NCBI GenBank assembly: GCA_964035575.1
Contig: OZ037847.1
Span: 1,240,001 to 1,304,000, forward strand
Length of the DNA stretch: 64,000 nucleotides
Source: Rhynchopus sp. YZ270_cl-10
Taxonomy: Eukaryota
Direction of reading: 5' to 3'
The number at the start of each line of letters is the position of its first letter. The stretch's first letter is position 1. This document shows, in pieces, positions 1 through 60,745 of the stretch. The notes under the pieces are model-generated. The model was not told the origin of the DNA. It did no database searches and saw nothing but the letters and a program-made list of their open reading frames with translations. The position numbers and the translations under genes were made by a program.

Positions 1-199
1 TTCATCGTTTTCAACAATAAATGCCAATCTTCTCCCCAGCCCCTTCATTTTGGAGATAATGCATTATTACCCAATATCATCCAATACGCTCACAACCGCT
101 TTTTCGTACGAGCAAGTCCTTAAGGTTCGCTGCTTTGTCCTGTTGAGGATTCAAGACTCCTGAAGAGGTAGATGTGGAGGTACACAACTGCACGTAACG

Positions 200-221
200 T
201 TCGTACTTCTTCACCTCACAG
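200..221 (+). promoter_or_regulatory. Candidate 3' splice acceptor (possibly spliced-leader trans-splice site), repeated in every array unit
   Basis: TTCGTACTTCTTCACCTCACAG lies 17 nt upstream of the ATG. A similar pyrimidine tract + CAG precedes the TBC gene at ~23440-23491. Confidence 0.5.
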
Positions 222-238
222 ATAAAACACACACAATA

Positions 239-1367
239 ATGTTGACCTCCATTGCTTGCGCTTGCTGCGCCATGCACAGACCTGCGTCAGGAGTCGGGCA
301 AGCGCTGGCATGATATTGACGGCAGCCGCTACAACTGCAAGTGGTACGCACGTGACAACAACTGCATGCGCTACGGCAGTGACTACAGGAACGAGCACGT
401 CGCGCTTGAGGCCTGCTGTGCCTGTGGTGGTGGCTCTGGTTCCGACACACTTCCGATCATGGCGAACACAACGAACACCACTGTGCCGTTGCCTCCGTTG
501 CCGCCCACTCCGACAAACAGCACCGATGGCAACTGGACTGAGAACAACTCTACCGGTAACTGGACTGGAGACTACTGGACTGGCGACATCTGGACTGACA
601 GCAACTCTACCGGAAACTTGACTGGTAACAACTCCACCGGAACGGGAAACTGGACCGGCGACAACTGGACTGAGAACAACTCCACAGGAAACTGGACTGA
701 CAACAACTCTACCGGTAACTGGACTGGAGACAACTGGACTGGAAACTGGACTGACAACAACTCCACTGGAGCTGGCAACTGGACTGGCGACAACTGGACA
801 GGAAACTGGACTGGTGGTAACTCCACCGGAGCTGGCAACTGGACTGGAGACAACTGGACAGGAAACTGGACGGACAACAACTCCACCGGTAACTGGACTG
901 GCGACAACTGGACTGGAAACTGGACTGACAACAACTCCACCGGAGCGGGCAACTGGACTGGAGACAACTGGACAGGAAACTGGACTGGTGGTAACTCCAC
1001 CGGAGCTGGCAACTGGACTGGAGACAACTGGACAGGAAACTGGACGGACAACAACTCCACCGGTAACTGGACTGGCGACAACTGGACTGGAAACTGGACT
1101 GACAACAACTCCACCGGAGCGGGCAACTGGACTGGAGACAACTGGACCGGCAACTGGACTGGTGGTAACTCCACCGGAGCGGGCAACTGGACTGGAGACA
1201 ACTGGACCGGCAACTGGACTGGTGGTAACTCCACCGGAGCTGGAAACTGGACCGGCAACAACTCTAGCGGAAACTGGACTGGAGACAACTCTACTGGAAC
1301 CGGCAACTGGACTGGCGACAACTCCACCGCAGCTGGAAACTGGACCGGCGACAACTGGACCGTCTAG
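239..1367 (+). pseudogene. Frameshifted array copy 1 (5-bp deletion in the signal peptide; repeat region 60 bp shorter than the 397-aa form)
   Basis: ATGTTGACCTCCATTGCTTGCG versus intact ATGTTGACCTCCATTGTCCTGCTTGCG. The ATG frame reads MLTSIACACCAMHRPASGVGQALA*. The listed ORF starts at a TTG. Confidence 0.85.
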
Positions 1368-2449
1368 AAGATATGAGTATAGAACCCTGGCTCTTCGACA
1401 CCACAGGAATGCCGAATATTTCTGGTGTTGGTCATTTTCTTTCCCCCCCCCTTTTTTTTTGACTTCAACATTCCATTCGCATATGTTCTCTTGCAGATGA
1501 AACTGTTCATCAGTGCTCGCGAAGTATCGCAGATGGATGCGTTTTGGGAAGAAGGAATACAAGCAGACATAGTGCAACGTTCCCTGTGCATTATTCTGTT
1601 TCGTTATTCACGATCTTCGAAAGCGTTTCATATTTTGTTCTCCCTCTCAAAGACTTTTTATTAGAACCAAGGTCGGATCCCTTGTGTTCACCCGTCTCCC
1701 TCCCCTGCCTTTTGTGTTTTATTTTGATGGCATCTTTCATTGTTGGACGTTCTGTCTCATCGCACTTCTGACTGCCTCTGTGCGGAGATGACGTTCACGA
1801 TGCCTTTTTCTATTAGAATCGACATTGATCCCACTTTCTTATGTGAGGTGACTAAGCACACAGAGCGGCTTAGATACATCTTACGAACTCATCTTTTGAT
1901 GTTTCCTTTCGCTTTTATTCATGATCCTTGACTTGTTTTTCTTTCTTTACATCAAGACCCCTTTGTGCTCTTCACGACCCTTGAGGGATGTGTGACCAGC
2001 TCCACTCATCTCTCGAGGATCTCAGGGATTCTGTTTTGACAATGTGGATACAGTATGAGAGAAAGACCCGTGCCTCTGCAGCAGGCCTTCTTCTTTGGAG
2101 AAGTTTCCTTTATACTGTGTCTGGCATTGTGCAAGAAGGAACCAAGCAAGCACAATAGGTCGTCGACTACCTTTTAACCAACCACTCACCCAATTGAATT
2201 GGTGGCATCGTTTCATCGTTTTCAACAATAAATGCCAATCTTCTCCCCAGCCCCTTCATTTTGGAGATAATGCATTATTACCCAATATCATCCAATACGC
2301 TCACAACCGCTTTTTCGTACGAGCAAGTCCTTAAGGTTCGCTGCTTTGTCCTGTTGAGGATTCAAGACTCCTGAAGAGGTAGATGTGGAGGTACACAACT
2401 GCACGTAACGTTCGTACTTCTTCACCTCACAGATAAAACACACACAATA

Positions 2450-3817
2450 ATGTTGACCTCCATTGTCCTGCTTGCGCTTGCTGCGCCATGCACAGACCTG
2501 CGTCAGGAGTCGGGCAAGCGCTGGCATGATATTGACGGCAGCCGCTACAACTGCAAGTGGTACGCACGTGACAACAACTGCATGCGCTACGGCAGTGACT
2601 ACAGGAACGAGCACGTCGCGCTTGAGGCCTGCTGTGCCTGTGGTGGTGGCTCTGGTTCCGACACACTTCCGATCATGGCGAACACAACGAACACCACTGT
2701 GCCGTTGCCTCCGTTGCCGCCCACTCCGACAAACAGCACCGATGGCAACTGGACTGAGAACAACTCTACCGGTAACTGGACTGGAGACTACTGGACTGGC
2801 GACATCTGGACTGACAGCAACTCTACCGGAAACTTGACTGGTAACAACTCCACCGGAACGGGAAACTGGACCGGCGACAACTGGACTGAGAACAACTCCA
2901 CAGGAAACTGGACTGACAACAACTCTACCGGTAACTGGACTGGAGACAACTGGACTGGAAACTGGACTGACAACAACTCCACTGGAGCTGGCAACTGGAC
3001 TGGCGACAACTGGACAGGAAACTGGACTGGTGGTAACTCCACCGGAGCTGGCAACTGGACTGGAGACAACTGGACAGGAAACTGGACGGACAACAACTCC
3101 ACCGGTAACTGGACTGGCGACAACTGGACTGGAAACTGGACTGACAACAACTCCACCGGAGCGGGCAACTGGACTGGAGACAACTGGACAGGAAACTGGA
3201 CTGGTGGTAACTCCACCGGAGCTGGCAACTGGACTGGAGACAACTGGACAGGAAACTGGACGGACAACAACTCCACCGGTAACTGGACTGGCGACAACTG
3301 GACTGGAAACTGGACTGACAACAACTCCACCGGAGCGGGCAACTGGACTGGAGACAACTGGACCGGCAACTGGACTGGTGGTAACTCCACCGGAGCTGGC
3401 AACTGGACTGGAGACAACTGGACAGGAAACTGGACGGACAACAACTCCACCGGAGCTGGCAACTGGACTGGAGACAACTGGACCGGCAACTGGACTGGTG
3501 GTAACTCCACCGGAGCTGGCAACTGGACTGGAGACAACTGGACAGGAAACTGGACGGACAACAACTCCACCGGTAACTGGACTGGCGACAACTGGACTGG
3601 AAACTGGACTGACAACAACTCCACCGGAGCGGGCAACTGGACTGGAGACAACTGGACCGGCAACTGGACTGGTGGTAACTCCACCGGAGCTGGAAACTGG
3701 ACCGGCAACAACTCTAGCGGAAACTGGACTGGAGACAACTCTACTGGAACCGGCAACTGGACTGGCGACAACTCCACCGCAGCTGGAAACTGGACCGGCG
3801 ACAACTGGACCGTCTAG
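2450..3817 (+). CDS. Secreted Cys-domain / NWT-repeat glycoprotein, long form (455 aa)
   Basis: Hydrophobic signal-like N-terminus MLTSIVLLALA, 6-Cys domain ending ACCACGGG, Pro/Thr linker, then NWTG/NNST repeats whose variation is mostly at third codon positions. Confidence 0.9.
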   Translation: MLTSIVLLALAAPCTDLRQESGKRWHDIDGSRYNCKWYARDNNCMRYGSDYRNEHVALEACCACGGGSGSDTLPIMANTTNTTVPLPPLPPTPTNSTDGNWTENNSTGNWTGDYWTGDIWTDSNSTGNLTGNNSTGTGNWTGDNWTENNSTGNWTDNNSTGNWTGDNWTGNWTDNNSTGAGNWTGDNWTGNWTGGNSTGAGNWTGDNWTGNWTDNNSTGNWTGDNWTGNWTDNNSTGAGNWTGDNWTGNWTGGNSTGAGNWTGDNWTGNWTDNNSTGNWTGDNWTGNWTDNNSTGAGNWTGDNWTGNWTGGNSTGAGNWTGDNWTGNWTDNNSTGAGNWTGDNWTGNWTGGNSTGAGNWTGDNWTGNWTDNNSTGNWTGDNWTGNWTDNNSTGAGNWTGDNWTGNWTGGNSTGAGNWTGNNSSGNWTGDNSTGTGNWTGDNSTAAGNWTGDNWTV

Positions 3818-4899
3818 AAGATATGAGTATAGAACCCTGGCTCTTCGACACCACAGGAATGCCGAATATTTCTGGTGTTGGTCATTTTCTTTCCCCCCCC
3901 CTTTTTTTTTGACTTCAACATTCCATTCGCATATGTTCTCTTGCAGATGAAACTGTTCATCAGTGCTCGCGAAGTATCGCAGATGGATGCGTTTTGGGAA
4001 GAAGGAATACAAGCAGACATAGTGCAACGTTCCCTGTGCATTATTCTGTTTCGTTATTCACGATCTTCGAAAGCGTTTCATATTTTGTTCTCCCTCTCAA
4101 AGACTTTTTATTAGAACCAAGGTCGGATCCCTTGTGTTCACCCGTCTCCCTCCCCTGCCTTTTGTGTTTTATTTTGATGGCATCTTTCATTGTTGGACGT
4201 TCTGTCTCATCGCACTTCTGACTGCCTCTGTGCGGAGATGACGTTCACGATGCCTTTTTCTATTAGAATCGACATTGATCCCACTTTCTTATGTGAGGTG
4301 ACTAAGCACACAGAGCGGCTTAGATACATCTTACGAACTCATCTTTTGATGTTTCCTTTCGCTTTTATTCATGATCCTTGACTTGTTTTTCTTTCTTTAC
4401 ATCAAGACCCCTTTGTGCTCTTCACGACCCTTGAGGGATGTGTGACCAGCTCCACTCATCTCTCGAGGATCTCAGGGATTCTGTTTTGACAATGTGGATA
4501 CAGTATGAGAGAAAGACCCGTGCCTCTGCAGCAGGCCTTCTTCTTTGGAGAAGTTTCCTTTATACTGTGTCTGGCATTGTGCAAGAAGGAACCAAGCAAG
4601 CACAATAGGTCGTCGACTACCTTTTAACCAACCACTCACCCAATTGAATTGGTGGCATCGTTTCATCGTTTTCAACAATAAATGCCAATCTTCTCCCCAG
4701 CCCCTTCATTTTGGAGATAATGCATTATTACCCAATATCATCCAATACGCTCACAACCGCTTTTTCGTACGAGCAAGTCCTTAAGGTTCGCTGCTTTGTC
4801 CTGTTGAGGATTCAAGACTCCTGAAGAGGTAGATGTGGAGGTACACAACTGCACGTAACGTTCGTACTTCTTCACCTCACAGATAAAACACACACAATA

Positions 4900-6093
4900 A
4901 TGTTGACCTCCATTGTCCTGCTTGCGCTTGCTGCGCCATGCACAGACCTGCGTCAGGAGTCGGGCAAGCGCTGGCATGATATTGACGGCAGCCGCTACAA
5001 CTGCAAGTGGTACGCACGTGACAACAACTGCATGCGCTACGGCAGTGACTACAGGAACGAGCACGTCGCGCTTGAGGCCTGCTGTGCCTGTGGTGGTGGC
5101 TCTGGTTCCGACACACTTCCGATCATGGCGAACACAACGAACACCACTGTGCCGTTGCCTCCGTTGCCGCCCACTCCGACAAACAGCACCGATGGCAACT
5201 GGACTGAGAACAACTCTACCGGTAACTGGACTGGAGACTACTGGACTGGCGACATCTGGACTGACAGCAACTCTACCGGAAACTTGACTGGTAACAACTC
5301 CACCGGAACGGGAAACTGGACCGGCGACAACTGGACTGAGAACAACTCCACAGGAAACTGGACTGACAACAACTCTACCGGTAACTGGACTGGAGACAAC
5401 TGGACTGGAAACTGGACTGACAACAACTCCACTGGAGCTGGCAACTGGACTGGCGACAACTGGACAGGAAACTGGACTGGTGGTAACTCCACCGGAGCTG
5501 GCAACTGGACTGGAGACAACTGGACAGGAAACTGGACGGACAACAACTCCACCGGTAACTGGACTGGCGACAACTGGACTGGAAACTGGACTGACAACAA
5601 CTCCACCGGAGCGGGCAACTGGACTGGAGACAACTGGACCGGCAACTGGACTGGTGGTAACTCCACCGGAGCTGGCAACTGGACTGGAGACAACTGGACA
5701 GGAAACTGGACGGACAACAACTCCACCGGAGCTGGCAACTGGACTGGAGACAACTGGACCGGCAACTGGACTGGTGGTAACTCCACCGGAGCTGGCAACT
5801 GGACTGGAGACAACTGGACAGGAAACTGGACGGACAACAACTCCACCGGTAACTGGACTGGCGACAACTGGACTGGAAACTGGACTGACAACAACTCCAC
5901 CGGAGCGGGCAACTGGACTGGAGACAACTGGACCGGCAACTGGACTGGTGGTAACTCCACCGGAGCTGGAAACTGGACCGGCAACAACTCTAGCGGAAAC
6001 TGGACTGGAGACAACTCTACTGGAACCGGCAACTGGACTGGCGACAACTCCACCGCAGCTGGAAACTGGACCGGCGACAACTGGACCGTCTAG
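4900..6093 (+). CDS. Secreted Cys-domain / NWT-repeat glycoprotein, short form (397 aa)
   Basis: Same as the 2450 copy minus one 174-bp (58-aa) repeat block. Confidence 0.9.
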   Translation: MLTSIVLLALAAPCTDLRQESGKRWHDIDGSRYNCKWYARDNNCMRYGSDYRNEHVALEACCACGGGSGSDTLPIMANTTNTTVPLPPLPPTPTNSTDGNWTENNSTGNWTGDYWTGDIWTDSNSTGNLTGNNSTGTGNWTGDNWTENNSTGNWTDNNSTGNWTGDNWTGNWTDNNSTGAGNWTGDNWTGNWTGGNSTGAGNWTGDNWTGNWTDNNSTGNWTGDNWTGNWTDNNSTGAGNWTGDNWTGNWTGGNSTGAGNWTGDNWTGNWTDNNSTGAGNWTGDNWTGNWTGGNSTGAGNWTGDNWTGNWTDNNSTGNWTGDNWTGNWTDNNSTGAGNWTGDNWTGNWTGGNSTGAGNWTGNNSSGNWTGDNSTGTGNWTGDNSTAAGNWTGDNWTV

Positions 6094-7175
6094 AAGATAT
6101 GAGTATAGAACCCTGGCTCTTCGACACCACAGGAATGCCGAATATTTCTGGTGTTGGTCATTTTCTTTCCCCCCCCCTTTTTTTTTGACTTCAACATTCC
6201 ATTCGCATATGTTCTCTTGCAGATGAAACTGTTCATCAGTGCTCGCGAAGTATCGCAGATGGATGCGTTTTGGGAAGAAGGAATACAAGCAGACATAGTG
6301 CAACGTTCCCTGTGCATTATTCTGTTTCGTTATTCACGATCTTCGAAAGCGTTTCATATTTTGTTCTCCCTCTCAAAGACTTTTTATTAGAACCAAGGTC
6401 GGATCCCTTGTGTTCACCCGTCTCCCTCCCCTGCCTTTTGTGTTTTATTTTGATGGCATCTTTCATTGTTGGACGTTCTGTCTCATCGCACTTCTGACTG
6501 CCTCTGTGCGGAGATGACGTTCACGATGCCTTTTTCTATTAGAATCGACATTGATCCCACTTTCTTATGTGAGGTGACTAAGCACACAGAGCGGCTTAGA
6601 TACATCTTACGAACTCATCTTTTGATGTTTCCTTTCGCTTTTATTCATGATCCTTGACTTGTTTTTCTTTCTTTACATCAAGACCCCTTTGTGCTCTTCA
6701 CGACCCTTGAGGGATGTGTGACCAGCTCCACTCATCTCTCGAGGATCTCAGGGATTCTGTTTTGACAATGTGGATACAGTATGAGAGAAAGACCCGTGCC
6801 TCTGCAGCAGGCCTTCTTCTTTGGAGAAGTTTCCTTTATACTGTGTCTGGCATTGTGCAAGAAGGAACCAAGCAAGCACAATAGGTCGTCGACTACCTTT
6901 TAACCAACCACTCACCCAATTGAATTGGTGGCATCGTTTCATCGTTTTCAACAATAAATGCCAATCTTCTCCCCAGCCCCTTCATTTTGGAGATAATGCA
7001 TTATTACCCAATATCATCCAATACGCTCACAACCGCTTTTTCGTACGAGCAAGTCCTTAAGGTTCGCTGCTTTGTCCTGTTGAGGATTCAAGACTCCTGA
7101 AGAGGTAGATGTGGAGGTACACAACTGCACGTAACGTTCGTACTTCTTCACCTCACAGATAAAACACACACAATA

Positions 7176-8369
7176 ATGTTGACCTCCATTGTCCTGCTTG
7201 CGCTTGCTGCGCCATGCACAGACCTGCGTCAGGAGTCGGGCAAGCGCTGGCATGATATTGACGGCAGCCGCTACAACTGCAAGTGGTACGCACGTGACAA
7301 CAACTGCATGCGCTACGGCAGTGACTACAGGAACGAGCACGTCGCGCTTGAGGCCTGCTGTGCCTGTGGTGGTGGCTCTGGTTCCGACACACTTCCGATC
7401 ATGGCGAACACAACGAACACCACTGTGCCGTTGCCTCCGTTGCCGCCCACTCCGACAAACAGCACCGATGGCAACTGGACTGAGAACAACTCTACCGGTA
7501 ACTGGACTGGAGACTACTGGACTGGCGACATCTGGACTGACAGCAACTCTACCGGAAACTTGACTGGTAACAACTCCACCGGAACGGGAAACTGGACCGG
7601 CGACAACTGGACTGAGAACAACTCCACAGGAAACTGGACTGACAACAACTCTACCGGTAACTGGACTGGAGACAACTGGACTGGAAACTGGACTGACAAC
7701 AACTCCACTGGAGCTGGCAACTGGACTGGCGACAACTGGACAGGAAACTGGACTGGTGGTAACTCCACCGGAGCTGGCAACTGGACTGGAGACAACTGGA
7801 CAGGAAACTGGACGGACAACAACTCCACCGGTAACTGGACTGGCGACAACTGGACTGGAAACTGGACTGACAACAACTCCACCGGAGCGGGCAACTGGAC
7901 TGGAGACAACTGGACCGGCAACTGGACTGGTGGTAACTCCACCGGAGCTGGCAACTGGACTGGAGACAACTGGACAGGAAACTGGACGGACAACAACTCC
8001 ACCGGAGCTGGCAACTGGACTGGAGACAACTGGACCGGCAACTGGACTGGTGGTAACTCCACCGGAGCTGGCAACTGGACTGGAGACAACTGGACAGGAA
8101 ACTGGACGGACAACAACTCCACCGGTAACTGGACTGGCGACAACTGGACTGGAAACTGGACTGACAACAACTCCACCGGAGCGGGCAACTGGACTGGAGA
8201 CAACTGGACCGGCAACTGGACTGGTGGTAACTCCACCGGAGCTGGAAACTGGACCGGCAACAACTCTAGCGGAAACTGGACTGGAGACAACTCTACTGGA
8301 ACCGGCAACTGGACTGGCGACAACTCCACCGCAGCTGGAAACTGGACCGGCGACAACTGGACCGTCTAG
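7176..8369 (+). CDS. Secreted Cys-domain / NWT-repeat glycoprotein, short form (397 aa)
   Basis: Array copy 4; translation identical to the 4900 copy. Confidence 0.9.
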   Translation: MLTSIVLLALAAPCTDLRQESGKRWHDIDGSRYNCKWYARDNNCMRYGSDYRNEHVALEACCACGGGSGSDTLPIMANTTNTTVPLPPLPPTPTNSTDGNWTENNSTGNWTGDYWTGDIWTDSNSTGNLTGNNSTGTGNWTGDNWTENNSTGNWTDNNSTGNWTGDNWTGNWTDNNSTGAGNWTGDNWTGNWTGGNSTGAGNWTGDNWTGNWTDNNSTGNWTGDNWTGNWTDNNSTGAGNWTGDNWTGNWTGGNSTGAGNWTGDNWTGNWTDNNSTGAGNWTGDNWTGNWTGGNSTGAGNWTGDNWTGNWTDNNSTGNWTGDNWTGNWTDNNSTGAGNWTGDNWTGNWTGGNSTGAGNWTGNNSSGNWTGDNSTGTGNWTGDNSTAAGNWTGDNWTV

Positions 8370-9451
8370 AAGATATGAGTATAGAACCCTGGCTCTTCGA
8401 CACCACAGGAATGCCGAATATTTCTGGTGTTGGTCATTTTCTTTCCCCCCCCCTTTTTTTTTGACTTCAACATTCCATTCGCATATGTTCTCTTGCAGAT
8501 GAAACTGTTCATCAGTGCTCGCGAAGTATCGCAGATGGATGCGTTTTGGGAAGAAGGAATACAAGCAGACATAGTGCAACGTTCCCTGTGCATTATTCTG
8601 TTTCGTTATTCACGATCTTCGAAAGCGTTTCATATTTTGTTCTCCCTCTCAAAGACTTTTTATTAGAACCAAGGTCGGATCCCTTGTGTTCACCCGTCTC
8701 CCTCCCCTGCCTTTTGTGTTTTATTTTGATGGCATCTTTCATTGTTGGACGTTCTGTCTCATCGCACTTCTGACTGCCTCTGTGCGGAGATGACGTTCAC
8801 GATGCCTTTTTCTATTAGAATCGACATTGATCCCACTTTCTTATGTGAGGTGACTAAGCACACAGAGCGGCTTAGATACATCTTACGAACTCATCTTTTG
8901 ATGTTTCCTTTCGCTTTTATTCATGATCCTTGACTTGTTTTTCTTTCTTTACATCAAGACCCCTTTGTGCTCTTCACGACCCTTGAGGGATGTGTGACCA
9001 GCTCCACTCATCTCTCGAGGATCTCAGGGATTCTGTTTTGACAATGTGGATACAGTATGAGAGAAAGACCCGTGCCTCTGCAGCAGGCCTTCTTCTTTGG
9101 AGAAGTTTCCTTTATACTGTGTCTGGCATTGTGCAAGAAGGAACCAAGCAAGCACAATAGGTCGTCGACTACCTTTTAACCAACCACTCACCCAATTGAA
9201 TTGGTGGCATCGTTTCATCGTTTTCAACAATAAATGCCAATCTTCTCCCCAGCCCCTTCATTTTGGAGATAATGCATTATTACCCAATATCATCCAATAC
9301 GCTCACAACCGCTTTTTCGTACGAGCAAGTCCTTAAGGTTCGCTGCTTTGTCCTGTTGAGGATTCAAGACTCCTGAAGAGGTAGATGTGGAGGTACACAA
9401 CTGCACGTAACGTTCGTACTTCTTCACCTCACAGATAAAACACACACAATA

Positions 9452-10819
9452 ATGTTGACCTCCATTGTCCTGCTTGCGCTTGCTGCGCCATGCACAGACC
9501 TGCGTCAGGAGTCGGGCAAGCGCTGGCATGATATTGACGGCAGCCGCTACAACTGCAAGTGGTACGCACGTGACAACAACTGCATGCGCTACGGCAGTGA
9601 CTACAGGAACGAGCACGTCGCGCTTGAGGCCTGCTGTGCCTGTGGTGGTGGCTCTGGTTCCGACACACTTCCGATCATGGCGAACACAACGAACACCACT
9701 GTGCCGTTGCCTCCGTTGCCGCCCACTCCGACAAACAGCACCGATGGCAACTGGACTGAGAACAACTCTACCGGTAACTGGACTGGAGACTACTGGACTG
9801 GCGACATCTGGACTGACAGCAACTCTACCGGAAACTTGACTGGTAACAACTCCACCGGAACGGGAAACTGGACCGGCGACAACTGGACTGAGAACAACTC
9901 CACAGGAAACTGGACTGACAACAACTCTACCGGTAACTGGACTGGAGACAACTGGACTGGAAACTGGACTGACAACAACTCCACTGGAGCTGGCAACTGG
10001 ACTGGCGACAACTGGACAGGAAACTGGACTGGTGGTAACTCCACCGGAGCTGGCAACTGGACTGGAGACAACTGGACAGGAAACTGGACGGACAACAACT
10101 CCACCGGTAACTGGACTGGCGACAACTGGACTGGAAACTGGACTGACAACAACTCCACCGGAGCGGGCAACTGGACTGGAGACAACTGGACAGGAAACTG
10201 GACTGGTGGTAACTCCACCGGAGCTGGCAACTGGACTGGAGACAACTGGACAGGAAACTGGACGGACAACAACTCCACCGGTAACTGGACTGGCGACAAC
10301 TGGACTGGAAACTGGACTGACAACAACTCCACCGGAGCGGGCAACTGGACTGGAGACAACTGGACCGGCAACTGGACTGGTGGTAACTCCACCGGAGCTG
10401 GCAACTGGACTGGAGACAACTGGACAGGAAACTGGACGGACAACAACTCCACCGGAGCTGGCAACTGGACTGGAGACAACTGGACCGGCAACTGGACTGG
10501 TGGTAACTCCACCGGAGCTGGCAACTGGACTGGAGACAACTGGACAGGAAACTGGACGGACAACAACTCCACCGGTAACTGGACTGGCGACAACTGGACT
10601 GGAAACTGGACTGACAACAACTCCACCGGAGCGGGCAACTGGACTGGAGACAACTGGACCGGCAACTGGACTGGTGGTAACTCCACCGGAGCTGGAAACT
10701 GGACCGGCAACAACTCTAGCGGAAACTGGACTGGAGACAACTCTACTGGAACCGGCAACTGGACTGGCGACAACTCCACCGCAGCTGGAAACTGGACCGG
10801 CGACAACTGGACCGTCTAG
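9452..10819 (+). CDS. Secreted Cys-domain / NWT-repeat glycoprotein, long form (455 aa)
   Basis: Array copy 5; translation identical to the 2450 copy. Confidence 0.9.
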   Translation: MLTSIVLLALAAPCTDLRQESGKRWHDIDGSRYNCKWYARDNNCMRYGSDYRNEHVALEACCACGGGSGSDTLPIMANTTNTTVPLPPLPPTPTNSTDGNWTENNSTGNWTGDYWTGDIWTDSNSTGNLTGNNSTGTGNWTGDNWTENNSTGNWTDNNSTGNWTGDNWTGNWTDNNSTGAGNWTGDNWTGNWTGGNSTGAGNWTGDNWTGNWTDNNSTGNWTGDNWTGNWTDNNSTGAGNWTGDNWTGNWTGGNSTGAGNWTGDNWTGNWTDNNSTGNWTGDNWTGNWTDNNSTGAGNWTGDNWTGNWTGGNSTGAGNWTGDNWTGNWTDNNSTGAGNWTGDNWTGNWTGGNSTGAGNWTGDNWTGNWTDNNSTGNWTGDNWTGNWTDNNSTGAGNWTGDNWTGNWTGGNSTGAGNWTGNNSSGNWTGDNSTGTGNWTGDNSTAAGNWTGDNWTV

Positions 10820-11901
10820 AAGATATGAGTATAGAACCCTGGCTCTTCGACACCACAGGAATGCCGAATATTTCTGGTGTTGGTCATTTTCTTTCCCCCC
10901 CCCTTTTTTTTTGACTTCAACATTCCATTCGCATATGTTCTCTTGCAGATGAAACTGTTCATCAGTGCTCGCGAAGTATCGCAGATGGATGCGTTTTGGG
11001 AAGAAGGAATACAAGCAGACATAGTGCAACGTTCCCTGTGCATTATTCTGTTTCGTTATTCACGATCTTCGAAAGCGTTTCATATTTTGTTCTCCCTCTC
11101 AAAGACTTTTTATTAGAACCAAGGTCGGATCCCTTGTGTTCACCCGTCTCCCTCCCCTGCCTTTTGTGTTTTATTTTGATGGCATCTTTCATTGTTGGAC
11201 GTTCTGTCTCATCGCACTTCTGACTGCCTCTGTGCGGAGATGACGTTCACGATGCCTTTTTCTATTAGAATCGACATTGATCCCACTTTCTTATGTGAGG
11301 TGACTAAGCACACAGAGCGGCTTAGATACATCTTACGAACTCATCTTTTGATGTTTCCTTTCGCTTTTATTCATGATCCTTGACTTGTTTTTCTTTCTTT
11401 ACATCAAGACCCCTTTGTGCTCTTCACGACCCTTGAGGGATGTGTGACCAGCTCCACTCATCTCTCGAGGATCTCAGGGATTCTGTTTTGACAATGTGGA
11501 TACAGTATGAGAGAAAGACCCGTGCCTCTGCAGCAGGCCTTCTTCTTTGGAGAAGTTTCCTTTATACTGTGTCTGGCATTGTGCAAGAAGGAACCAAGCA
11601 AGCACAATAGGTCGTCGACTACCTTTTAACCAACCACTCACCCAATTGAATTGGTGGCATCGTTTCATCGTTTTCAACAATAAATGCCAATCTTCTCCCC
11701 AGCCCCTTCATTTTGGAGATAATGCATTATTACCCAATATCATCCAATACGCTCACAACCGCTTTTTCGTACGAGCAAGTCCTTAAGGTTCGCTGCTTTG
11801 TCCTGTTGAGGATTCAAGACTCCTGAAGAGGTAGATGTGGAGGTACACAACTGCACGTAACGTTCGTACTTCTTCACCTCACAGATAAAACACACACAAT
11901 A

Positions 11902-13090
11902 ATGTTGACCTCCATTGCTTGCGCTTGCTGCGCCATGCACAGACCTGCGTCAGGAGTCGGGCAAGCGCTGGCATGATATTGACGGCAGCCGCTACAACTG
12001 CAAGTGGTACGCACGTGACAACAACTGCATGCGCTACGGCAGTGACTACAGGAACGAGCACGTCGCGCTTGAGGCCTGCTGTGCCTGTGGTGGTGGCTCT
12101 GGTTCCGACACACTTCCGATCATGGCGAACACAACGAACACCACTGTGCCGTTGCCTCCGTTGCCGCCCACTCCGACAAACAGCACCGATGGCAACTGGA
12201 CTGAGAACAACTCTACCGGTAACTGGACTGGAGACTACTGGACTGGCGACATCTGGACTGACAGCAACTCTACCGGAAACTTGACTGGTAACAACTCCAC
12301 CGGAACGGGAAACTGGACCGGCGACAACTGGACTGAGAACAACTCCACAGGAAACTGGACTGACAACAACTCTACCGGTAACTGGACTGGAGACAACTGG
12401 ACTGGAAACTGGACTGACAACAACTCCACTGGAGCTGGCAACTGGACTGGCGACAACTGGACAGGAAACTGGACTGGTGGTAACTCCACCGGAGCTGGCA
12501 ACTGGACTGGAGACAACTGGACAGGAAACTGGACGGACAACAACTCCACCGGTAACTGGACTGGCGACAACTGGACTGGAAACTGGACTGACAACAACTC
12601 CACCGGAGCGGGCAACTGGACTGGAGACAACTGGACCGGCAACTGGACTGGTGGTAACTCCACCGGAGCTGGCAACTGGACTGGAGACAACTGGACAGGA
12701 AACTGGACGGACAACAACTCCACCGGAGCTGGCAACTGGACTGGAGACAACTGGACCGGCAACTGGACTGGTGGTAACTCCACCGGAGCTGGCAACTGGA
12801 CTGGAGACAACTGGACAGGAAACTGGACGGACAACAACTCCACCGGTAACTGGACTGGCGACAACTGGACTGGAAACTGGACTGACAACAACTCCACCGG
12901 AGCGGGCAACTGGACTGGAGACAACTGGACCGGCAACTGGACTGGTGGTAACTCCACCGGAGCTGGAAACTGGACCGGCAACAACTCTAGCGGAAACTGG
13001 ACTGGAGACAACTCTACTGGAACCGGCAACTGGACTGGCGACAACTCCACCGCAGCTGGAAACTGGACCGGCGACAACTGGACCGTCTAG
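11902..13090 (+). pseudogene. Frameshifted array copy 6
   Basis: Same 5-bp signal-peptide deletion as copy 1 (CCATTGCTTGCG); unit length 2271 = 2276-5. Confidence 0.85.
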
Positions 13091-14172
13091 AAGATATGAG
13101 TATAGAACCCTGGCTCTTCGACACCACAGGAATGCCGAATATTTCTGGTGTTGGTCATTTTCTTTCCCCCCCCCTTTTTTTTTGACTTCAACATTCCATT
13201 CGCATATGTTCTCTTGCAGATGAAACTGTTCATCAGTGCTCGCGAAGTATCGCAGATGGATGCGTTTTGGGAAGAAGGAATACAAGCAGACATAGTGCAA
13301 CGTTCCCTGTGCATTATTCTGTTTCGTTATTCACGATCTTCGAAAGCGTTTCATATTTTGTTCTCCCTCTCAAAGACTTTTTATTAGAACCAAGGTCGGA
13401 TCCCTTGTGTTCACCCGTCTCCCTCCCCTGCCTTTTGTGTTTTATTTTGATGGCATCTTTCATTGTTGGACGTTCTGTCTCATCGCACTTCTGACTGCCT
13501 CTGTGCGGAGATGACGTTCACGATGCCTTTTTCTATTAGAATCGACATTGATCCCACTTTCTTATGTGAGGTGACTAAGCACACAGAGCGGCTTAGATAC
13601 ATCTTACGAACTCATCTTTTGATGTTTCCTTTCGCTTTTATTCATGATCCTTGACTTGTTTTTCTTTCTTTACATCAAGACCCCTTTGTGCTCTTCACGA
13701 CCCTTGAGGGATGTGTGACCAGCTCCACTCATCTCTCGAGGATCTCAGGGATTCTGTTTTGACAATGTGGATACAGTATGAGAGAAAGACCCGTGCCTCT
13801 GCAGCAGGCCTTCTTCTTTGGAGAAGTTTCCTTTATACTGTGTCTGGCATTGTGCAAGAAGGAACCAAGCAAGCACAATAGGTCGTCGACTACCTTTTAA
13901 CCAACCACTCACCCAATTGAATTGGTGGCATCGTTTCATCGTTTTCAACAATAAATGCCAATCTTCTCCCCAGCCCCTTCATTTTGGAGATAATGCATTA
14001 TTACCCAATATCATCCAATACGCTCACAACCGCTTTTTCGTACGAGCAAGTCCTTAAGGTTCGCTGCTTTGTCCTGTTGAGGATTCAAGACTCCTGAAGA
14101 GGTAGATGTGGAGGTACACAACTGCACGTAACGTTCGTACTTCTTCACCTCACAGATAAAACACACACAATA

Positions 14173-15366
14173 ATGTTGACCTCCATTGTCCTGCTTGCGC
14201 TTGCTGCGCCATGCACAGACCTGCGTCAGGAGTCGGGCAAGCGCTGGCATGATATTGACGGCAGCCGCTACAACTGCAAGTGGTACGCACGTGACAACAA
14301 CTGCATGCGCTACGGCAGTGACTACAGGAACGAGCACGTCGCGCTTGAGGCCTGCTGTGCCTGTGGTGGTGGCTCTGGTTCCGACACACTTCCGATCATG
14401 GCGAACACAACGAACACCACTGTGCCGTTGCCTCCGTTGCCGCCCACTCCGACAAACAGCACCGATGGCAACTGGACTGAGAACAACTCTACCGGTAACT
14501 GGACTGGAGACTACTGGACTGGCGACATCTGGACTGACAGCAACTCTACCGGAAACTTGACTGGTAACAACTCCACCGGAACGGGAAACTGGACCGGCGA
14601 CAACTGGACTGAGAACAACTCCACAGGAAACTGGACTGACAACAACTCTACCGGTAACTGGACTGGAGACAACTGGACTGGAAACTGGACTGACAACAAC
14701 TCCACTGGAGCTGGCAACTGGACTGGCGACAACTGGACAGGAAACTGGACTGGTGGTAACTCCACCGGAGCTGGCAACTGGACTGGAGACAACTGGACAG
14801 GAAACTGGACGGACAACAACTCCACCGGTAACTGGACTGGCGACAACTGGACTGGAAACTGGACTGACAACAACTCCACCGGAGCGGGCAACTGGACTGG
14901 AGACAACTGGACCGGCAACTGGACTGGTGGTAACTCCACCGGAGCTGGCAACTGGACTGGAGACAACTGGACAGGAAACTGGACGGACAACAACTCCACC
15001 GGAGCTGGCAACTGGACTGGAGACAACTGGACCGGCAACTGGACTGGTGGTAACTCCACCGGAGCTGGCAACTGGACTGGAGACAACTGGACAGGAAACT
15101 GGACGGACAACAACTCCACCGGTAACTGGACTGGCGACAACTGGACTGGAAACTGGACTGACAACAACTCCACCGGAGCGGGCAACTGGACTGGAGACAA
15201 CTGGACCGGCAACTGGACTGGTGGTAACTCCACCGGAGCTGGAAACTGGACCGGCAACAACTCTAGCGGAAACTGGACTGGAGACAACTCTACTGGAACC
15301 GGCAACTGGACTGGCGACAACTCCACCGCAGCTGGAAACTGGACCGGCGACAACTGGACCGTCTAG
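14173..15366 (+). CDS. Secreted Cys-domain / NWT-repeat glycoprotein, short form (397 aa)
   Basis: Array copy 7. Confidence 0.9.
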   Translation: MLTSIVLLALAAPCTDLRQESGKRWHDIDGSRYNCKWYARDNNCMRYGSDYRNEHVALEACCACGGGSGSDTLPIMANTTNTTVPLPPLPPTPTNSTDGNWTENNSTGNWTGDYWTGDIWTDSNSTGNLTGNNSTGTGNWTGDNWTENNSTGNWTDNNSTGNWTGDNWTGNWTDNNSTGAGNWTGDNWTGNWTGGNSTGAGNWTGDNWTGNWTDNNSTGNWTGDNWTGNWTDNNSTGAGNWTGDNWTGNWTGGNSTGAGNWTGDNWTGNWTDNNSTGAGNWTGDNWTGNWTGGNSTGAGNWTGDNWTGNWTDNNSTGNWTGDNWTGNWTDNNSTGAGNWTGDNWTGNWTGGNSTGAGNWTGNNSSGNWTGDNSTGTGNWTGDNSTAAGNWTGDNWTV

Positions 15367-16448
15367 AAGATATGAGTATAGAACCCTGGCTCTTCGACAC
15401 CACAGGAATGCCGAATATTTCTGGTGTTGGTCATTTTCTTTCCCCCCCCCTTTTTTTTTGACTTCAACATTCCATTCGCATATGTTCTCTTGCAGATGAA
15501 ACTGTTCATCAGTGCTCGCGAAGTATCGCAGATGGATGCGTTTTGGGAAGAAGGAATACAAGCAGACATAGTGCAACGTTCCCTGTGCATTATTCTGTTT
15601 CGTTATTCACGATCTTCGAAAGCGTTTCATATTTTGTTCTCCCTCTCAAAGACTTTTTATTAGAACCAAGGTCGGATCCCTTGTGTTCACCCGTCTCCCT
15701 CCCCTGCCTTTTGTGTTTTATTTTGATGGCATCTTTCATTGTTGGACGTTCTGTCTCATCGCACTTCTGACTGCCTCTGTGCGGAGATGACGTTCACGAT
15801 GCCTTTTTCTATTAGAATCGACATTGATCCCACTTTCTTATGTGAGGTGACTAAGCACACAGAGCGGCTTAGATACATCTTACGAACTCATCTTTTGATG
15901 TTTCCTTTCGCTTTTATTCATGATCCTTGACTTGTTTTTCTTTCTTTACATCAAGACCCCTTTGTGCTCTTCACGACCCTTGAGGGATGTGTGACCAGCT
16001 CCACTCATCTCTCGAGGATCTCAGGGATTCTGTTTTGACAATGTGGATACAGTATGAGAGAAAGACCCGTGCCTCTGCAGCAGGCCTTCTTCTTTGGAGA
16101 AGTTTCCTTTATACTGTGTCTGGCATTGTGCAAGAAGGAACCAAGCAAGCACAATAGGTCGTCGACTACCTTTTAACCAACCACTCACCCAATTGAATTG
16201 GTGGCATCGTTTCATCGTTTTCAACAATAAATGCCAATCTTCTCCCCAGCCCCTTCATTTTGGAGATAATGCATTATTACCCAATATCATCCAATACGCT
16301 CACAACCGCTTTTTCGTACGAGCAAGTCCTTAAGGTTCGCTGCTTTGTCCTGTTGAGGATTCAAGACTCCTGAAGAGGTAGATGTGGAGGTACACAACTG
16401 CACGTAACGTTCGTACTTCTTCACCTCACAGATAAAACACACACAATA

Positions 16449-17816
16449 ATGTTGACCTCCATTGTCCTGCTTGCGCTTGCTGCGCCATGCACAGACCTGC
16501 GTCAGGAGTCGGGCAAGCGCTGGCATGATATTGACGGCAGCCGCTACAACTGCAAGTGGTACGCACGTGACAACAACTGCATGCGCTACGGCAGTGACTA
16601 CAGGAACGAGCACGTCGCGCTTGAGGCCTGCTGTGCCTGTGGTGGTGGCTCTGGTTCCGACACACTTCCGATCATGGCGAACACAACGAACACCACTGTG
16701 CCGTTGCCTCCGTTGCCGCCCACTCCGACAAACAGCACCGATGGCAACTGGACTGAGAACAACTCTACCGGTAACTGGACTGGAGACTACTGGACTGGCG
16801 ACATCTGGACTGACAGCAACTCTACCGGAAACTTGACTGGTAACAACTCCACCGGAACGGGAAACTGGACCGGCGACAACTGGACTGAGAACAACTCCAC
16901 AGGAAACTGGACTGACAACAACTCTACCGGTAACTGGACTGGAGACAACTGGACTGGAAACTGGACTGACAACAACTCCACTGGAGCTGGCAACTGGACT
17001 GGCGACAACTGGACAGGAAACTGGACTGGTGGTAACTCCACCGGAGCTGGCAACTGGACTGGAGACAACTGGACAGGAAACTGGACGGACAACAACTCCA
17101 CCGGTAACTGGACTGGCGACAACTGGACTGGAAACTGGACTGACAACAACTCCACCGGAGCGGGCAACTGGACTGGAGACAACTGGACAGGAAACTGGAC
17201 TGGTGGTAACTCCACCGGAGCTGGCAACTGGACTGGAGACAACTGGACAGGAAACTGGACGGACAACAACTCCACCGGTAACTGGACTGGCGACAACTGG
17301 ACTGGAAACTGGACTGACAACAACTCCACCGGAGCGGGCAACTGGACTGGAGACAACTGGACCGGCAACTGGACTGGTGGTAACTCCACCGGAGCTGGCA
17401 ACTGGACTGGAGACAACTGGACAGGAAACTGGACGGACAACAACTCCACCGGAGCTGGCAACTGGACTGGAGACAACTGGACCGGCAACTGGACTGGTGG
17501 TAACTCCACCGGAGCTGGCAACTGGACTGGAGACAACTGGACAGGAAACTGGACGGACAACAACTCCACCGGTAACTGGACTGGCGACAACTGGACTGGA
17601 AACTGGACTGACAACAACTCCACCGGAGCGGGCAACTGGACTGGAGACAACTGGACCGGCAACTGGACTGGTGGTAACTCCACCGGAGCTGGAAACTGGA
17701 CCGGCAACAACTCTAGCGGAAACTGGACTGGAGACAACTCTACTGGAACCGGCAACTGGACTGGCGACAACTCCACCGCAGCTGGAAACTGGACCGGCGA
17801 CAACTGGACCGTCTAG
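16449..17816 (+). CDS. Secreted Cys-domain / NWT-repeat glycoprotein, long form (455 aa)
   Basis: Array copy 8. Confidence 0.9.
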   Translation: MLTSIVLLALAAPCTDLRQESGKRWHDIDGSRYNCKWYARDNNCMRYGSDYRNEHVALEACCACGGGSGSDTLPIMANTTNTTVPLPPLPPTPTNSTDGNWTENNSTGNWTGDYWTGDIWTDSNSTGNLTGNNSTGTGNWTGDNWTENNSTGNWTDNNSTGNWTGDNWTGNWTDNNSTGAGNWTGDNWTGNWTGGNSTGAGNWTGDNWTGNWTDNNSTGNWTGDNWTGNWTDNNSTGAGNWTGDNWTGNWTGGNSTGAGNWTGDNWTGNWTDNNSTGNWTGDNWTGNWTDNNSTGAGNWTGDNWTGNWTGGNSTGAGNWTGDNWTGNWTDNNSTGAGNWTGDNWTGNWTGGNSTGAGNWTGDNWTGNWTDNNSTGNWTGDNWTGNWTDNNSTGAGNWTGDNWTGNWTGGNSTGAGNWTGNNSSGNWTGDNSTGTGNWTGDNSTAAGNWTGDNWTV

Positions 17817-18898
17817 AAGATATGAGTATAGAACCCTGGCTCTTCGACACCACAGGAATGCCGAATATTTCTGGTGTTGGTCATTTTCTTTCCCCCCCCC
17901 TTTTTTTTTGACTTCAACATTCCATTCGCATATGTTCTCTTGCAGATGAAACTGTTCATCAGTGCTCGCGAAGTATCGCAGATGGATGCGTTTTGGGAAG
18001 AAGGAATACAAGCAGACATAGTGCAACGTTCCCTGTGCATTATTCTGTTTCGTTATTCACGATCTTCGAAAGCGTTTCATATTTTGTTCTCCCTCTCAAA
18101 GACTTTTTATTAGAACCAAGGTCGGATCCCTTGTGTTCACCCGTCTCCCTCCCCTGCCTTTTGTGTTTTATTTTGATGGCATCTTTCATTGTTGGACGTT
18201 CTGTCTCATCGCACTTCTGACTGCCTCTGTGCGGAGATGACGTTCACGATGCCTTTTTCTATTAGAATCGACATTGATCCCACTTTCTTATGTGAGGTGA
18301 CTAAGCACACAGAGCGGCTTAGATACATCTTACGAACTCATCTTTTGATGTTTCCTTTCGCTTTTATTCATGATCCTTGACTTGTTTTTCTTTCTTTACA
18401 TCAAGACCCCTTTGTGCTCTTCACGACCCTTGAGGGATGTGTGACCAGCTCCACTCATCTCTCGAGGATCTCAGGGATTCTGTTTTGACAATGTGGATAC
18501 AGTATGAGAGAAAGACCCGTGCCTCTGCAGCAGGCCTTCTTCTTTGGAGAAGTTTCCTTTATACTGTGTCTGGCATTGTGCAAGAAGGAACCAAGCAAGC
18601 ACAATAGGTCGTCGACTACCTTTTAACCAACCACTCACCCAATTGAATTGGTGGCATCGTTTCATCGTTTTCAACAATAAATGCCAATCTTCTCCCCAGC
18701 CCCTTCATTTTGGAGATAATGCATTATTACCCAATATCATCCAATACGCTCACAACCGCTTTTTCGTACGAGCAAGTCCTTAAGGTTCGCTGCTTTGTCC
18801 TGTTGAGGATTCAAGACTCCTGAAGAGGTAGATGTGGAGGTACACAACTGCACGTAACGTTCGTACTTCTTCACCTCACAGATAAAACACACACAATA

Positions 18899-20092
18899 AT
18901 GTTGACCTCCATTGTCCTGCTTGCGCTTGCTGCGCCATGCACAGACCTGCGTCAGGAGTCGGGCAAGCGCTGGCATGATATTGACGGCAGCCGCTACAAC
19001 TGCAAGTGGTACGCACGTGACAACAACTGCATGCGCTACGGCAGTGACTACAGGAACGAGCACGTCGCGCTTGAGGCCTGCTGTGCCTGTGGTGGTGGCT
19101 CTGGTTCCGACACACTTCCGATCATGGCGAACACAACGAACACCACTGTGCCGTTGCCTCCGTTGCCGCCCACTCCGACAAACAGCACCGATGGCAACTG
19201 GACTGAGAACAACTCTACCGGTAACTGGACTGGAGACTACTGGACTGGCGACATCTGGACTGACAGCAACTCTACCGGAAACTTGACTGGTAACAACTCC
19301 ACCGGAACGGGAAACTGGACCGGCGACAACTGGACTGAGAACAACTCCACAGGAAACTGGACGGACAACAACTCCACCGGTAACTGGACTGGCGACAACT
19401 GGACTGGAAACTGGACTGACAACAACTCCACCGGAGCGGGCAACTGGACTGGAGACAACTGGACAGGAAACTGGACTGGTGGTAACTCCACCGGAGCTGG
19501 CAACTGGACTGGAGACAACTGGACAGGAAACTGGACGGACAACAACTCCACCGGTAACTGGACTGGCGACAACTGGACTGGAAACTGGACTGACAACAAC
19601 TCCACCGGAGCGGGCAACTGGACTGGAGACAACTGGACCGGCAACTGGACTGGTGGTAACTCCACCGGAGCTGGCAACTGGACTGGAGACAACTGGACAG
19701 GAAACTGGACGGACAACAACTCCACCGGAGCTGGCAACTGGACTGGAGACAACTGGACCGGCAACTGGACTGGTGGTAACTCCACCGGAGCTGGCAACTG
19801 GACTGGAGACAACTGGACAGGAAACTGGACGGACAACAACTCCACCGGTAACTGGACTGGCGACAACTGGACTGGAAACTGGACTGACAACAACTCCACC
19901 GGAGCGGGCAACTGGACTGGAGACAACTGGACCGGCAACTGGACTGGTGGTAACTCCACCGGAGCTGGAAACTGGACCGGCAACAACTCTAGCGGAAACT
20001 GGACTGGAGACAACTCTACTGGAACCGGCAACTGGACTGGCGACAACTCCACCGCAGCTGGAAACTGGACCGGCGACAACTGGACCGTCTAG
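18899..20092 (+). CDS. Secreted Cys-domain / NWT-repeat glycoprotein, short form (397 aa; distinct synonymous haplotype)
   Basis: Array copy 9; same protein, but the first repeat block carries ACG/TCC ACC/GCG codons. Confidence 0.9.
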   Translation: MLTSIVLLALAAPCTDLRQESGKRWHDIDGSRYNCKWYARDNNCMRYGSDYRNEHVALEACCACGGGSGSDTLPIMANTTNTTVPLPPLPPTPTNSTDGNWTENNSTGNWTGDYWTGDIWTDSNSTGNLTGNNSTGTGNWTGDNWTENNSTGNWTDNNSTGNWTGDNWTGNWTDNNSTGAGNWTGDNWTGNWTGGNSTGAGNWTGDNWTGNWTDNNSTGNWTGDNWTGNWTDNNSTGAGNWTGDNWTGNWTGGNSTGAGNWTGDNWTGNWTDNNSTGAGNWTGDNWTGNWTGGNSTGAGNWTGDNWTGNWTDNNSTGNWTGDNWTGNWTDNNSTGAGNWTGDNWTGNWTGGNSTGAGNWTGNNSSGNWTGDNSTGTGNWTGDNSTAAGNWTGDNWTV

Positions 20093-21174
20093 AAGATATG
20101 AGTATAGAACCCTGGCTCTTCGACACCACAGGAATGCCGAATATTTCTGGTGTTGGTCATTTTCTTTCCCCCCCCCTTTTTTTTTGACTTCAACATTCCA
20201 TTCGCATATGTTCTCTTGCAGATGAAACTGTTCATCAGTGCTCGCGAAGTATCGCAGATGGATGCGTTTTGGGAAGAAGGAATACAAGCAGACATAGTGC
20301 AACGTTCCCTGTGCATTATTCTGTTTCGTTATTCACGATCTTCGAAAGCGTTTCATATTTTGTTCTCCCTCTCAAAGACTTTTTATTAGAACCAAGGTCG
20401 GATCCCTTGTGTTCACCCGTCTCCCTCCCCTGCCTTTTGTGTTTTATTTTGATGGCATCTTTCATTGTTGGACGTTCTGTCTCATCGCACTTCTGACTGC
20501 CTCTGTGCGGAGATGACGTTCACGATGCCTTTTTCTATTAGAATCGACATTGATCCCACTTTCTTATGTGAGGTGACTAAGCACACAGAGCGGCTTAGAT
20601 ACATCTTACGAACTCATCTTTTGATGTTTCCTTTCGCTTTTATTCATGATCCTTGACTTGTTTTTCTTTCTTTACATCAAGACCCCTTTGTGCTCTTCAC
20701 GACCCTTGAGGGATGTGTGACCAGCTCCACTCATCTCTCGAGGATCTCAGGGATTCTGTTTTGACAATGTGGATACAGTATGAGAGAAAGACCCGTGCCT
20801 CTGCAGCAGGCCTTCTTCTTTGGAGAAGTTTCCTTTATACTGTGTCTGGCATTGTGCAAGAAGGAACCAAGCAAGCACAATAGGTCGTCGACTACCTTTT
20901 AACCAACCACTCACCCAATTGAATTGGTGGCATCGTTTCATCGTTTTCAACAATAAATGCCAATCTTCTCCCCAGCCCCTTCATTTTGGAGATAATGCAT
21001 TATTACCCAATATCATCCAATACGCTCACAACCGCTTTTTCGTACGAGCAAGTCCTTAAGGTTCGCTGCTTTGTCCTGTTGAGGATTCAAGACTCCTGAA
21101 GAGGTAGATGTGGAGGTACACAACTGCACGTAACGTTCGTACTTCTTCACCTCACAGATAAAACACACACAATA

Positions 21175-53269: not shown

Positions 53270-53374
<105 letters not shown>

Positions 53375-55032: not shown

Positions 55033-55170
55033 CGAGAGCAGGCGGCAGCGCGCGTTACGCTCTCCCTCCCACCACCCTCCCCCCCCTCTCCCCCCCCTCT
55101 TGTTTTTTCTTCCCCCCCCCCCCCACGGCCCTCCCCGCCAAAACACACATCCGCCGAGTTTTCTTCCGAA

Positions 55171-58662: not shown

Positions 58663-58751
<89 letters not shown>

Positions 58752-58754
<3 letters not shown>

Positions 58755-60698: not shown

Positions 60699-60745
<47 letters not shown>

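Follow-up and report, generated by a model that had tools for sequence, protein, structure and literature searches.

Our analysis of a 64,000 nt window of genomic DNA from Rhynchopus sp. YZ270_cl-10 (by ‘the window’ we mean this whole stretch) revealed a tandem array of intronless genes for an apparently secreted protein, which joins an unnamed six-cysteine module to a repeat in which every asparagine lies within an N-glycosylation sequon. The locus is real and, as far as we searched, undescribed; its function we infer. We tentatively favour a model where the product may be a dosage-amplified, N-glycan-coated beta-helical rod of a mucilage coat, building on what we observed of the gene anatomy, the copy number within the window, the saturation with sequons, and the module family with its partner domains.

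Copy 2 of the array, called and translated as an intronless ORF of 455 aa (2450..3817, + strand), illustrates the anatomy. Residues 1–12 (2450..2485) form a short signal-peptide-like start, the sole hydrophobic stretch of the protein (3.39 in a Kyte–Doolittle window of seven residues); the relatives P0066 and P0049 have comparable starts, and in both the module likewise sits straight after the hydrophobic segment. The six-Cys ‘CCxCGGG’ module, an unnamed and widespread extracellular domain, occupies residues 14–67 (C14–G67, 54 aa; 2489..2650). It is followed by a Pro/Thr linker with three sequons at N78, N81 and N95 (residues 68–97; 2651..2740), and by a 358 aa NWT/NST repeat region predicted to be a beta-helix (residues 98–455; 2741..3814), all on the + strand. 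N, G, T, W, D and S make up 96 % of the repeat, which is 23.5 % Asn, 22 % Gly, 14 % Trp and 27 % Thr plus Ser, with no Pro; Lys and Arg are absent beyond residue 52, the last basic position. We found no transmembrane or GPI-type tail, the highest 19-residue Kyte–Doolittle window after residue 20 being 0.66, and the C-terminus lies within the repeat itself. The original prediction, made from the sequence alone, had proposed a signal-like N-terminus, a six-Cys module of about 55 aa, a Pro linker, a tract made almost entirely of these six residues, a sequon every 4–6 residues and no membrane or GPI-type tail, and this layout was borne out.

The saturation with sequons is extreme. Across the whole protein, 87 of the 91 Asn residues lie in N-x-S/T sequons, the four exceptions all being in the Cys module, and the sequons number 74 when overlapping NNST is counted once. 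For the repeat the figure is 84 of 84, against 22.7±3.6 (maximum 37) in 10,000 shuffles. The distance from one sequon to the next is 4–6 residues in 70 of the 86 gaps and a single residue in 13. Trp-centred sequons are invariably NWT (49, with no NWS), and the Asn residues beyond NWT (in NST, NNS and the linker NTT) likewise always fall within a sequon. From residue 162, the regular part comprises 13 repeats, each 18 or 20 residues long, flanked at both ends by degenerate repeats; this higher-order period has the consensus NWTGD-NWTG-NWT-(DN or GG)-NSTG-(AG) and carries four to five sequons per unit.

The annotated reading frame is favoured over the other open frames because third codon positions account for six of the nine variable columns among internal repeats, and because six of the eight coding differences checked between paralogs are synonymous. 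The other open frames across the repeat, a Thr-rich +1 frame and two on the minus strand, were rejected as shadows: none contains an ATG-started ORF of ≥150 aa, and both the wobble pattern and the module belong to the annotated frame. Searches with the locus gave no match to Rfam, and with the whole protein no match to Pfam up to an E value of 1.

The six-Cys module defines a large domain family. A search with the module matched 592 representative proteins (E≤0.001), and the module also occurs at 75 metagenome loci and at 17 loci of a viral collection. As the original prediction had supposed, no named family emerged for the whole protein or for the module, and Pfam, NCBIfam and PDB sequences gave nothing convincing for the module. 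In a 94-row alignment, C1, W12, C48, C49, C51, G52 and G53 are invariant, and the module in the window keeps all nine invariant or near-invariant Cys, Trp and Gly positions. Exactly six Cys are present in 377 of 402 modules, and 376 of these 377 end in CC-x-C. When given the alignment, AlphaFold predicted three short helices (pLDDT 89.9). Neither Foldseek (E≤0.001) nor VIA-align (Z≥2) found a neighbour for this 54-residue model; small domains score low, and the missing neighbour does not show that the predicted fold is new. A word-indexed protein search with the module region gave one match among three candidates, the same type of search with the module against longer proteins gave none, and an atlas search scored the module at 0.90–0.91 to unnamed clusters. 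ShKT is also a small six-Cys accessory domain that starts with C-x-D and is appended to astacins and trypsins, but its C-x3-C-x2-C tail occurs in none of the 402 modules, and the Pfam ShK profile matched 0 of 94 modules at E values up to 1.

Secreted proteases, lectins and transglutaminase are frequent fusion partners of the module. Proteins carry between 1 and 18 modules, and other members of the family join the module to Pro/Thr/Ser stalks (37 % T, P or S over the 30 residues after modules). Of the 70 metagenome ORFs, 56 were scanned against Pfam, and 19 of these contained a protease domain; among the 150 representatives 34 were scanned, and 12 contained one. The module-linked protease types are trypsin, subtilase, astacin, M35, M11, M64 and reprolysin. 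Two scanned hosts have a transglutaminase domain, and further partners are ricin-type lectin, chitin-binding, CUB, DOMON and glucanase domains; 24 of the 56 scanned metagenome ORFs lacked any Pfam match. The module thus appears, from its domain partners, to behave like an extracellular targeting tag. P0066 (from Lacrimia lanifica) and P0049 combine a signal peptide, modules and a transglutaminase domain, and are candidate extracellular cross-linking enzymes. Twelve viral-collection contigs (L076–L087), several of them labelled as giant-virus MAGs, encode a conserved Cys-rich protein of 733–747 aa with one module and an N-terminal hydrophobic anchor. At L039:48-3179 the module is accompanied by dockerin, somatomedin B and a T9SS C-terminal tail, which suggests that it is present in bacteria too.

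The best single-module match to the protein in the window is P0076 of Rhynchopus euleeides, with 64 % identity over the 54 aa domain. The two modules are sisters in a 93-row tree, built from the 70 most similar of the 402 modules together with the modules of nine chosen proteins, at a support of 99/47 that is not firm. Twenty module-bearing proteins chosen by similarity were looked up; four of these relatives were named to organism, all of them diplonemid (three from R. euleeides, one from L. lanifica).

The relatives also bear on whether the sequons are under selection. Among 152 module-bearing proteins the median sequon z-score was −1.0, a depletion, and just four were strongly enriched: the protein in the window (z of 17), P0003 (17), P0004 (7) and P0076 (4). 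Four more of the 152 lay at z of 2.2–2.6, and the 148 proteins outside the strongly enriched group contain 343 sequons, compared with 604 expected. None of 80 metagenome module ORFs exceeded seven sequons per 100 residues. P0003 has 22 copies (7+15) of a 12-mer that bears NAT and NWT, and P0076 has WNTT repeats; the sequon repeats of both contain Pro and look unfolded. That close relatives have unlike repeats, each with both a sequon and an aromatic residue, points to convergence on this combination. Together with the depletion of sequons in most of the module family, this makes selection for glycosylation likely. P0003 (2485 aa, ENA) has a PA domain, 18 modules, 112 sequons and a transmembrane anchor, and could be a membrane-bound counterpart; a Pfam Ntox21 assignment on it was rejected, as the score is summed from 18 repeats and no single stretch passes. 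At the other extreme, the giant secreted-type module protein P0069 (4881 aa, ENA) has no sequon among 220 Asn residues where 47.6 were expected, which by its sequence would be a striking avoidance of N-glycosylation.

Human cells glycosylate NWT more efficiently than NWS, according to a part of bioRxiv 10.64898/2026.09.03.749169, and the 49 : 0 ratio of NWT to NWS matches that preference. By the same source, human glycosites under-represent Trp at +1, Asp at −1 and Asn close by, and the sequons may therefore be filled incompletely; a section of a review (PMC12818257) states that a bulky residue like Trp makes a sequon less efficient. The earlier claim of a secreted, heavily N-glycosylated protein is supported indirectly, by sequons far above what composition would give, by NWT that is never NWS, by the different sequon repeats of close relatives, and by the presence of the module on secreted enzymes. 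We consider it probable that the product is a secreted N-glycoprotein, whether it forms a rod or a brush.

The shape of the repeat was approached by modelling. A word-indexed search found no sequence homologue of the repeat among 7988 candidates (E≤0.001), a setting in which low-complexity scoring may hide relatives; the best atlas score was 0.79, under the lead level, and the repeat DNA pattern had no occurrence in viral contigs. A single-sequence AlphaFold model (mean pLDDT 55.8, pTM 0.49, with 57–79 over residues 151–400) places a short strand at each NWT, three strands in each rung and one rung in each repeat, and makes the variable NST part a loop, to which the variation in repeat length is confined. 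Foldseek found nothing significant with this model. VIA-align aligned it with many parallel beta-helices (161 chains at Z≥8), led by a phage tailspike (Z of 20.6) and the bacterial beta-helical antifreeze protein 3p4g (Z of 19.3, rmsd 2.7, 261 residues aligned), and including EtpA (8vba; Z of 17.8, rmsd 3.8, 348 aligned). So many similar matches suggest that a type of fold has been matched, not a family. The repeat is predicted to be a beta-helix with three strands per rung, and the alternation along the modelled strands would turn Trp inward and Asn and Thr outward. The original prediction had offered a glycopolymer or a beta-solenoid as alternatives; the two are compatible, and the model sets each NWT on a strand of a beta-helix.

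In the model that we tentatively favour, the 12-residue start would direct the chain into the ER, where oligosaccharyltransferase would fill many of the 74 non-overlapping sequons. The 47 kDa chain would then become a glycoprotein of up to 110–185 kDa, 58–74 % sugar (66–138 kDa of glycan, an estimate at full occupancy). Each 18- or 20-residue repeat would form one rung of three NWT strands around a tryptophan core, with Asn-linked glycans and Thr outside; the NST sequon would sit in the loop that varies, and the rod would measure about 6–8 nm. A volume estimate with assumed densities and reach leaves room for four high-mannose glycans on each rung, which would take up about 30 % of the shell (packing of about 0.3). 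The glycoprotein, being unanchored, would be released and probably kept in the mucilage coat by the Cys module; the disulfide module might bind some component of the matrix to which the module-bearing proteases, lectins and transglutaminase attach as well, bringing all of them into one extracellular layer. Tandem copies would raise output, so that the coat could be made in bulk. Mucilaginous coats are described for two Diplonema species in a portion of PMC5845003: starved D. japonicum encloses itself in one within hours, and D. aggregatum cells are glued by theirs. Counting against the rod are the modelled spacing of the glycan rows, 4.8 Å apart and tight at the first sugar, and a beta-helix model of modest confidence built on one sequence; the frameshifts in two of the ten copies and the want of point divergence between units count against the favoured reading as a whole.

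AlphaFold2 tends to coil perfect repeats into solenoids, and for this reason a secreted, densely N-glycosylated but unfolded chain remains a strong rival, although we hold it to be doubtful. Such a mucin-like, N-linked bottle-brush would have a contour length of about 110–125 nm and one glycan per 17 Å, and its Trp residues would stack on sugars or make the gel sticky. All of the evidence for sequon saturation and selection applies to it, and it gains from the Gly content, the Pro in the repeats of P0003 and P0076, the Pro/Thr/Ser stalks elsewhere in the family and the modest AlphaFold confidence. The 14 % Trp, the invariant core of three NWT motifs and the restriction of length variation to one loop, however, fit a folded rung, and the repeat is without Pro.

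A more ambitious reading of the fold, which we think unlikely, is a building block of an Asn-linked glycofibril: a three-sided beta-helix with a solid Trp core, three or four full eukaryotic N-glycans on every rung, stacked in ladders with the spacing of a beta-sheet, and targeting by the module, which would mark a matrix system common to diplonemids and diatoms, to further protists and to giant viruses. The spacing of chitin chains is close to that of beta-sheets.

It is improbable, in our view, that the protein is an unglycosylated or lightly glycosylated beta-helix, its Asn and Thr ladders binding ice, mineral or polysaccharide or stacking into an extrusome filament, with the sequons a by-product of the N-W-T strand motif. 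Secreted chains meet the ER glycosylation machinery before they fold, and Asn outside NWT is also always in a sequon. The second-best structural match is an antifreeze protein, but that match is generic, one of the 161; beta-solenoid ice-binding proteins have a regular T-x-T (or T-x-N) row, whereas here Thr residues are 4–6 apart in the regular repeats and no regular T-x-T motif is present. Diplonemids do have tubular extrusomes, according to the text available to us from PMC5845003.

The array itself (1..23146, + strand) consists of ten units of 2211–2450 nt and is open at the 5′ end of the window. Eight of the ten copies are intact: three of 455 aa, namely copies 2, 5 (9452..10819) and 8 (16449..17816), and five of 397 aa, namely copies 3 (4900..6093), 4 (7176..8369), 7 (14173..15366), 9 (18899..20092) and 10 (21175..22368), the final unit ahead of a TBC gene. 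Copy 1 (239..1367), with a repeat 234 nt shorter than that of copy 2, and copy 6 (11902..13090) share a 5 nt deletion in the signal peptide that shifts the frame; all copies lie on the + strand. The copies fall into three length classes whose steps are whole repeats (174 or 234 nt). Apart from such indels and the 5 nt deletion, variation between units is limited to six bases in copy 9, which differs from copy 3 at these positions inside the repeat. The spacer of 1082 nt (3′ UTR and intergenic; 3818..4899, + strand) has the same sequence in all units, with zero point differences. A pyrimidine tract ending in CAG, at 2418..2432 (+ strand) in the case of copy 2, lies 17 nt 5′ of the ATG once in every unit, and the next gene has one too; from sequence, these tracts are likely to be trans-splice acceptors. 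Diplonemid genes are co-transcribed and trans-spliced, as stated in a part of PMC10161547.

Sequencing runs bear on the copy number. Contigs of runs X1 and X2, from two studies of which one is possibly the source of the window, cross the junction between units, and both runs also contain diverged paralogs; run X8 (presumed RNA) contains diverged pieces only, chiefly spacer. The depth of unit-specific contigs relative to the TBC gene was about 10–12× (X1), 11–13× (X3) and 3–13× (X5), ratios that fit about ten copies, contig depth not being a copy number. The 5 nt deletion was not among the contig differences listed for the runs, and contigs lose rare variants. The original claim of at least ten copies stands as a count of units in the window, with just eight of the ten copies intact. 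In trypanosomatids, tandem gene copies boost output where genes are co-transcribed, and it is plausible that the amplification here reflects selection for dosage; a recent and partly neutral amplification would fit as well, because the copies lack point differences and two of them are frameshifted.

We give little credence to the array being tandem repeat DNA that is silent or in decay, derived from a once-functional gene recently amplified together with its spacer and free of selection for dosage. The frameshifted copies and the uniform spacers are what it would lead one to expect, and an array of similar size in D. papillatum, about eight 2.5 kb units with a 283 aa ORF apparently untranscribed according to an excerpt of PMC10161547, is by analogy a real caution for the expression of the present one. 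On the other hand, eight of the ten copies are intact, the signal, the conserved module and the acceptor-like site have all been preserved, and the diverged paralogs in the runs show mostly synonymous changes. A role as a glycan decoy or as a ligand for lectins, released to soak up carbohydrate-binding proteins of viruses or predators instead of building a coat, would suit the missing membrane anchor, the extreme predicted glycan valency and the 17 module loci on giant-virus-collection contigs, but the partners of the module suggest matrix building and remodelling, and we regard it as highly improbable.

The remainder of the window contains several other features. Immediately 3′ of the array, an intronless gene (23547–25673, + strand) encodes a 708 aa RabGAP-TBC protein with a Pex24p/dysferlin-type domain, and its upstream region continues a diverged array spacer. 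A dispersed repeat is present at 25690–26030 and 50541–50738 (89 % alike); in contigs its depth is thousands of times greater than for the TBC gene. On the − strand, a stand-alone tyrosine recombinase ORF of 338 aa (30743–31759), between inverted arms of 43 nt (30483–30525 and 31882–31924), belongs to what we take to be a Crypton-like DNA element. A Pro/Gln/Ala-rich ORF of 637 aa (37199–39112, + strand) had no Pfam match. A retroelement occupies 53323–58700, followed by a partial copy (58703–60700) and a second copy from 60694; its gag-like (53779–55032), tyrosine recombinase (55171–56166) and RT/RNase H (55863–57872) frames are all open, and it has split direct repeats, A at the 5′ end and B-A-B at the 3′ end, with copies 96–100 % alike. 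This arrangement appears to be of the VIPER/TATE type, the split-direct-repeat layout described for these kinetoplastid elements in a part of PMC6681497.

Several known systems share part of this design. The EPGENGT repeats of Trypanosoma congolense procyclin carry N-glycans. This protein is likewise a euglenozoan surface protein made nearly entirely of short repeats with a sequon in each (PMC3820035, in part), but it is GPI-anchored and Pro/Glu-rich, with one sequon per seven residues, no Trp and no Cys module; the protein described here is unanchored, with a sequon about every five residues, 14 % Trp and no EPGENGT-type repeat. Hyosophorins and polysialoglycoprotein are secreted tandem-repeat glycoproteins of 80–90 % carbohydrate, some with an N-glycan per repeat (PMC3528131, in part), and our protein, with three near-identical 18/20-mers, has this repetitive character in common with hyosophorins. 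These are vertebrate (fish egg) cortical alveolus proteins without a Trp repeat or Cys module, whereas our protein has diplonemid named relatives and an intronless, protist-type locus, and no sequence relation between the two was found.

The TPS adhesins EtpA and HMW1 are N-glycosylated parallel beta-helices with repeats, and our model resembles EtpA as noted above. They are bacterial, however, and receive a mono- or di-hexose from a cytosolic enzyme; about 4 % of EtpA residues are modified, against up to 17 % predicted here (PMC11463764, in the portion consulted). Their TPS secretion domain is absent from our protein, the N-terminus of which is the Cys module, without a Pfam match. The CryoSeek glycofibrils (TLP-12 and kin) are protist-linked repeat proteins with short beta-strands and stacked glycan ridges, an arrangement that our model would resemble; TLP-12, in which cryo-EM shows an ordered shell of glycans around a repeat core, has a triple chain about 20,000 residues long, a GSxxS dodecapeptide and glycans modelled on Ser/Thr (bioRxiv 10.1101/2025.09.30.679562, in part). 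Our protein is 397–455 aa long, with Asn sequons and Trp and no GSxxS dodecapeptide. Gel-forming mucins have the same layout of a Cys-rich end domain and a repeat stalk designed to be largely sugar; compared with these and with membrane mucins, in which the O-glycosylated repeat is rich in Pro, Thr and Ser, the stalk here is based on Asn and Trp and contains no Pro, and VWD, cystine-knot (CK) and SEA domains are absent. Within the module family, P0076 and P0003 set the same module subtype beside aromatic-plus-sequon repeats, but their repeat units are different and include Pro, P0076 is a 136 aa fragment, and P0003 has the PA domain and transmembrane anchor. The protein in the window lacks a defining feature of each known system compared, and a literature search, mostly of papers outside subscription, returned no description of the module or the repeat, and nothing relevant on secreted repeat glycoproteins of diplonemids.

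If expressed and glycosylated, the protein would represent a mucin-like material built on N-glycans, with about one site per five residues, a density well above the approximately 4 % of residues given for EtpA in the part of PMC11463764 consulted. It would offer a small and regular test bed for the density limits of oligosaccharyltransferase and for the stacking of N-glycans on a beta-helix. At least 592 clusters make up the family of the six-Cys module, which is predicted to fold well and is missing from the libraries searched; naming it would help to annotate many proteases and lectins that are secreted, and proteins of giant viruses. For the diplonemids, marine protists that are abundant and little known, the array provides a candidate molecule of the mucilage coat.
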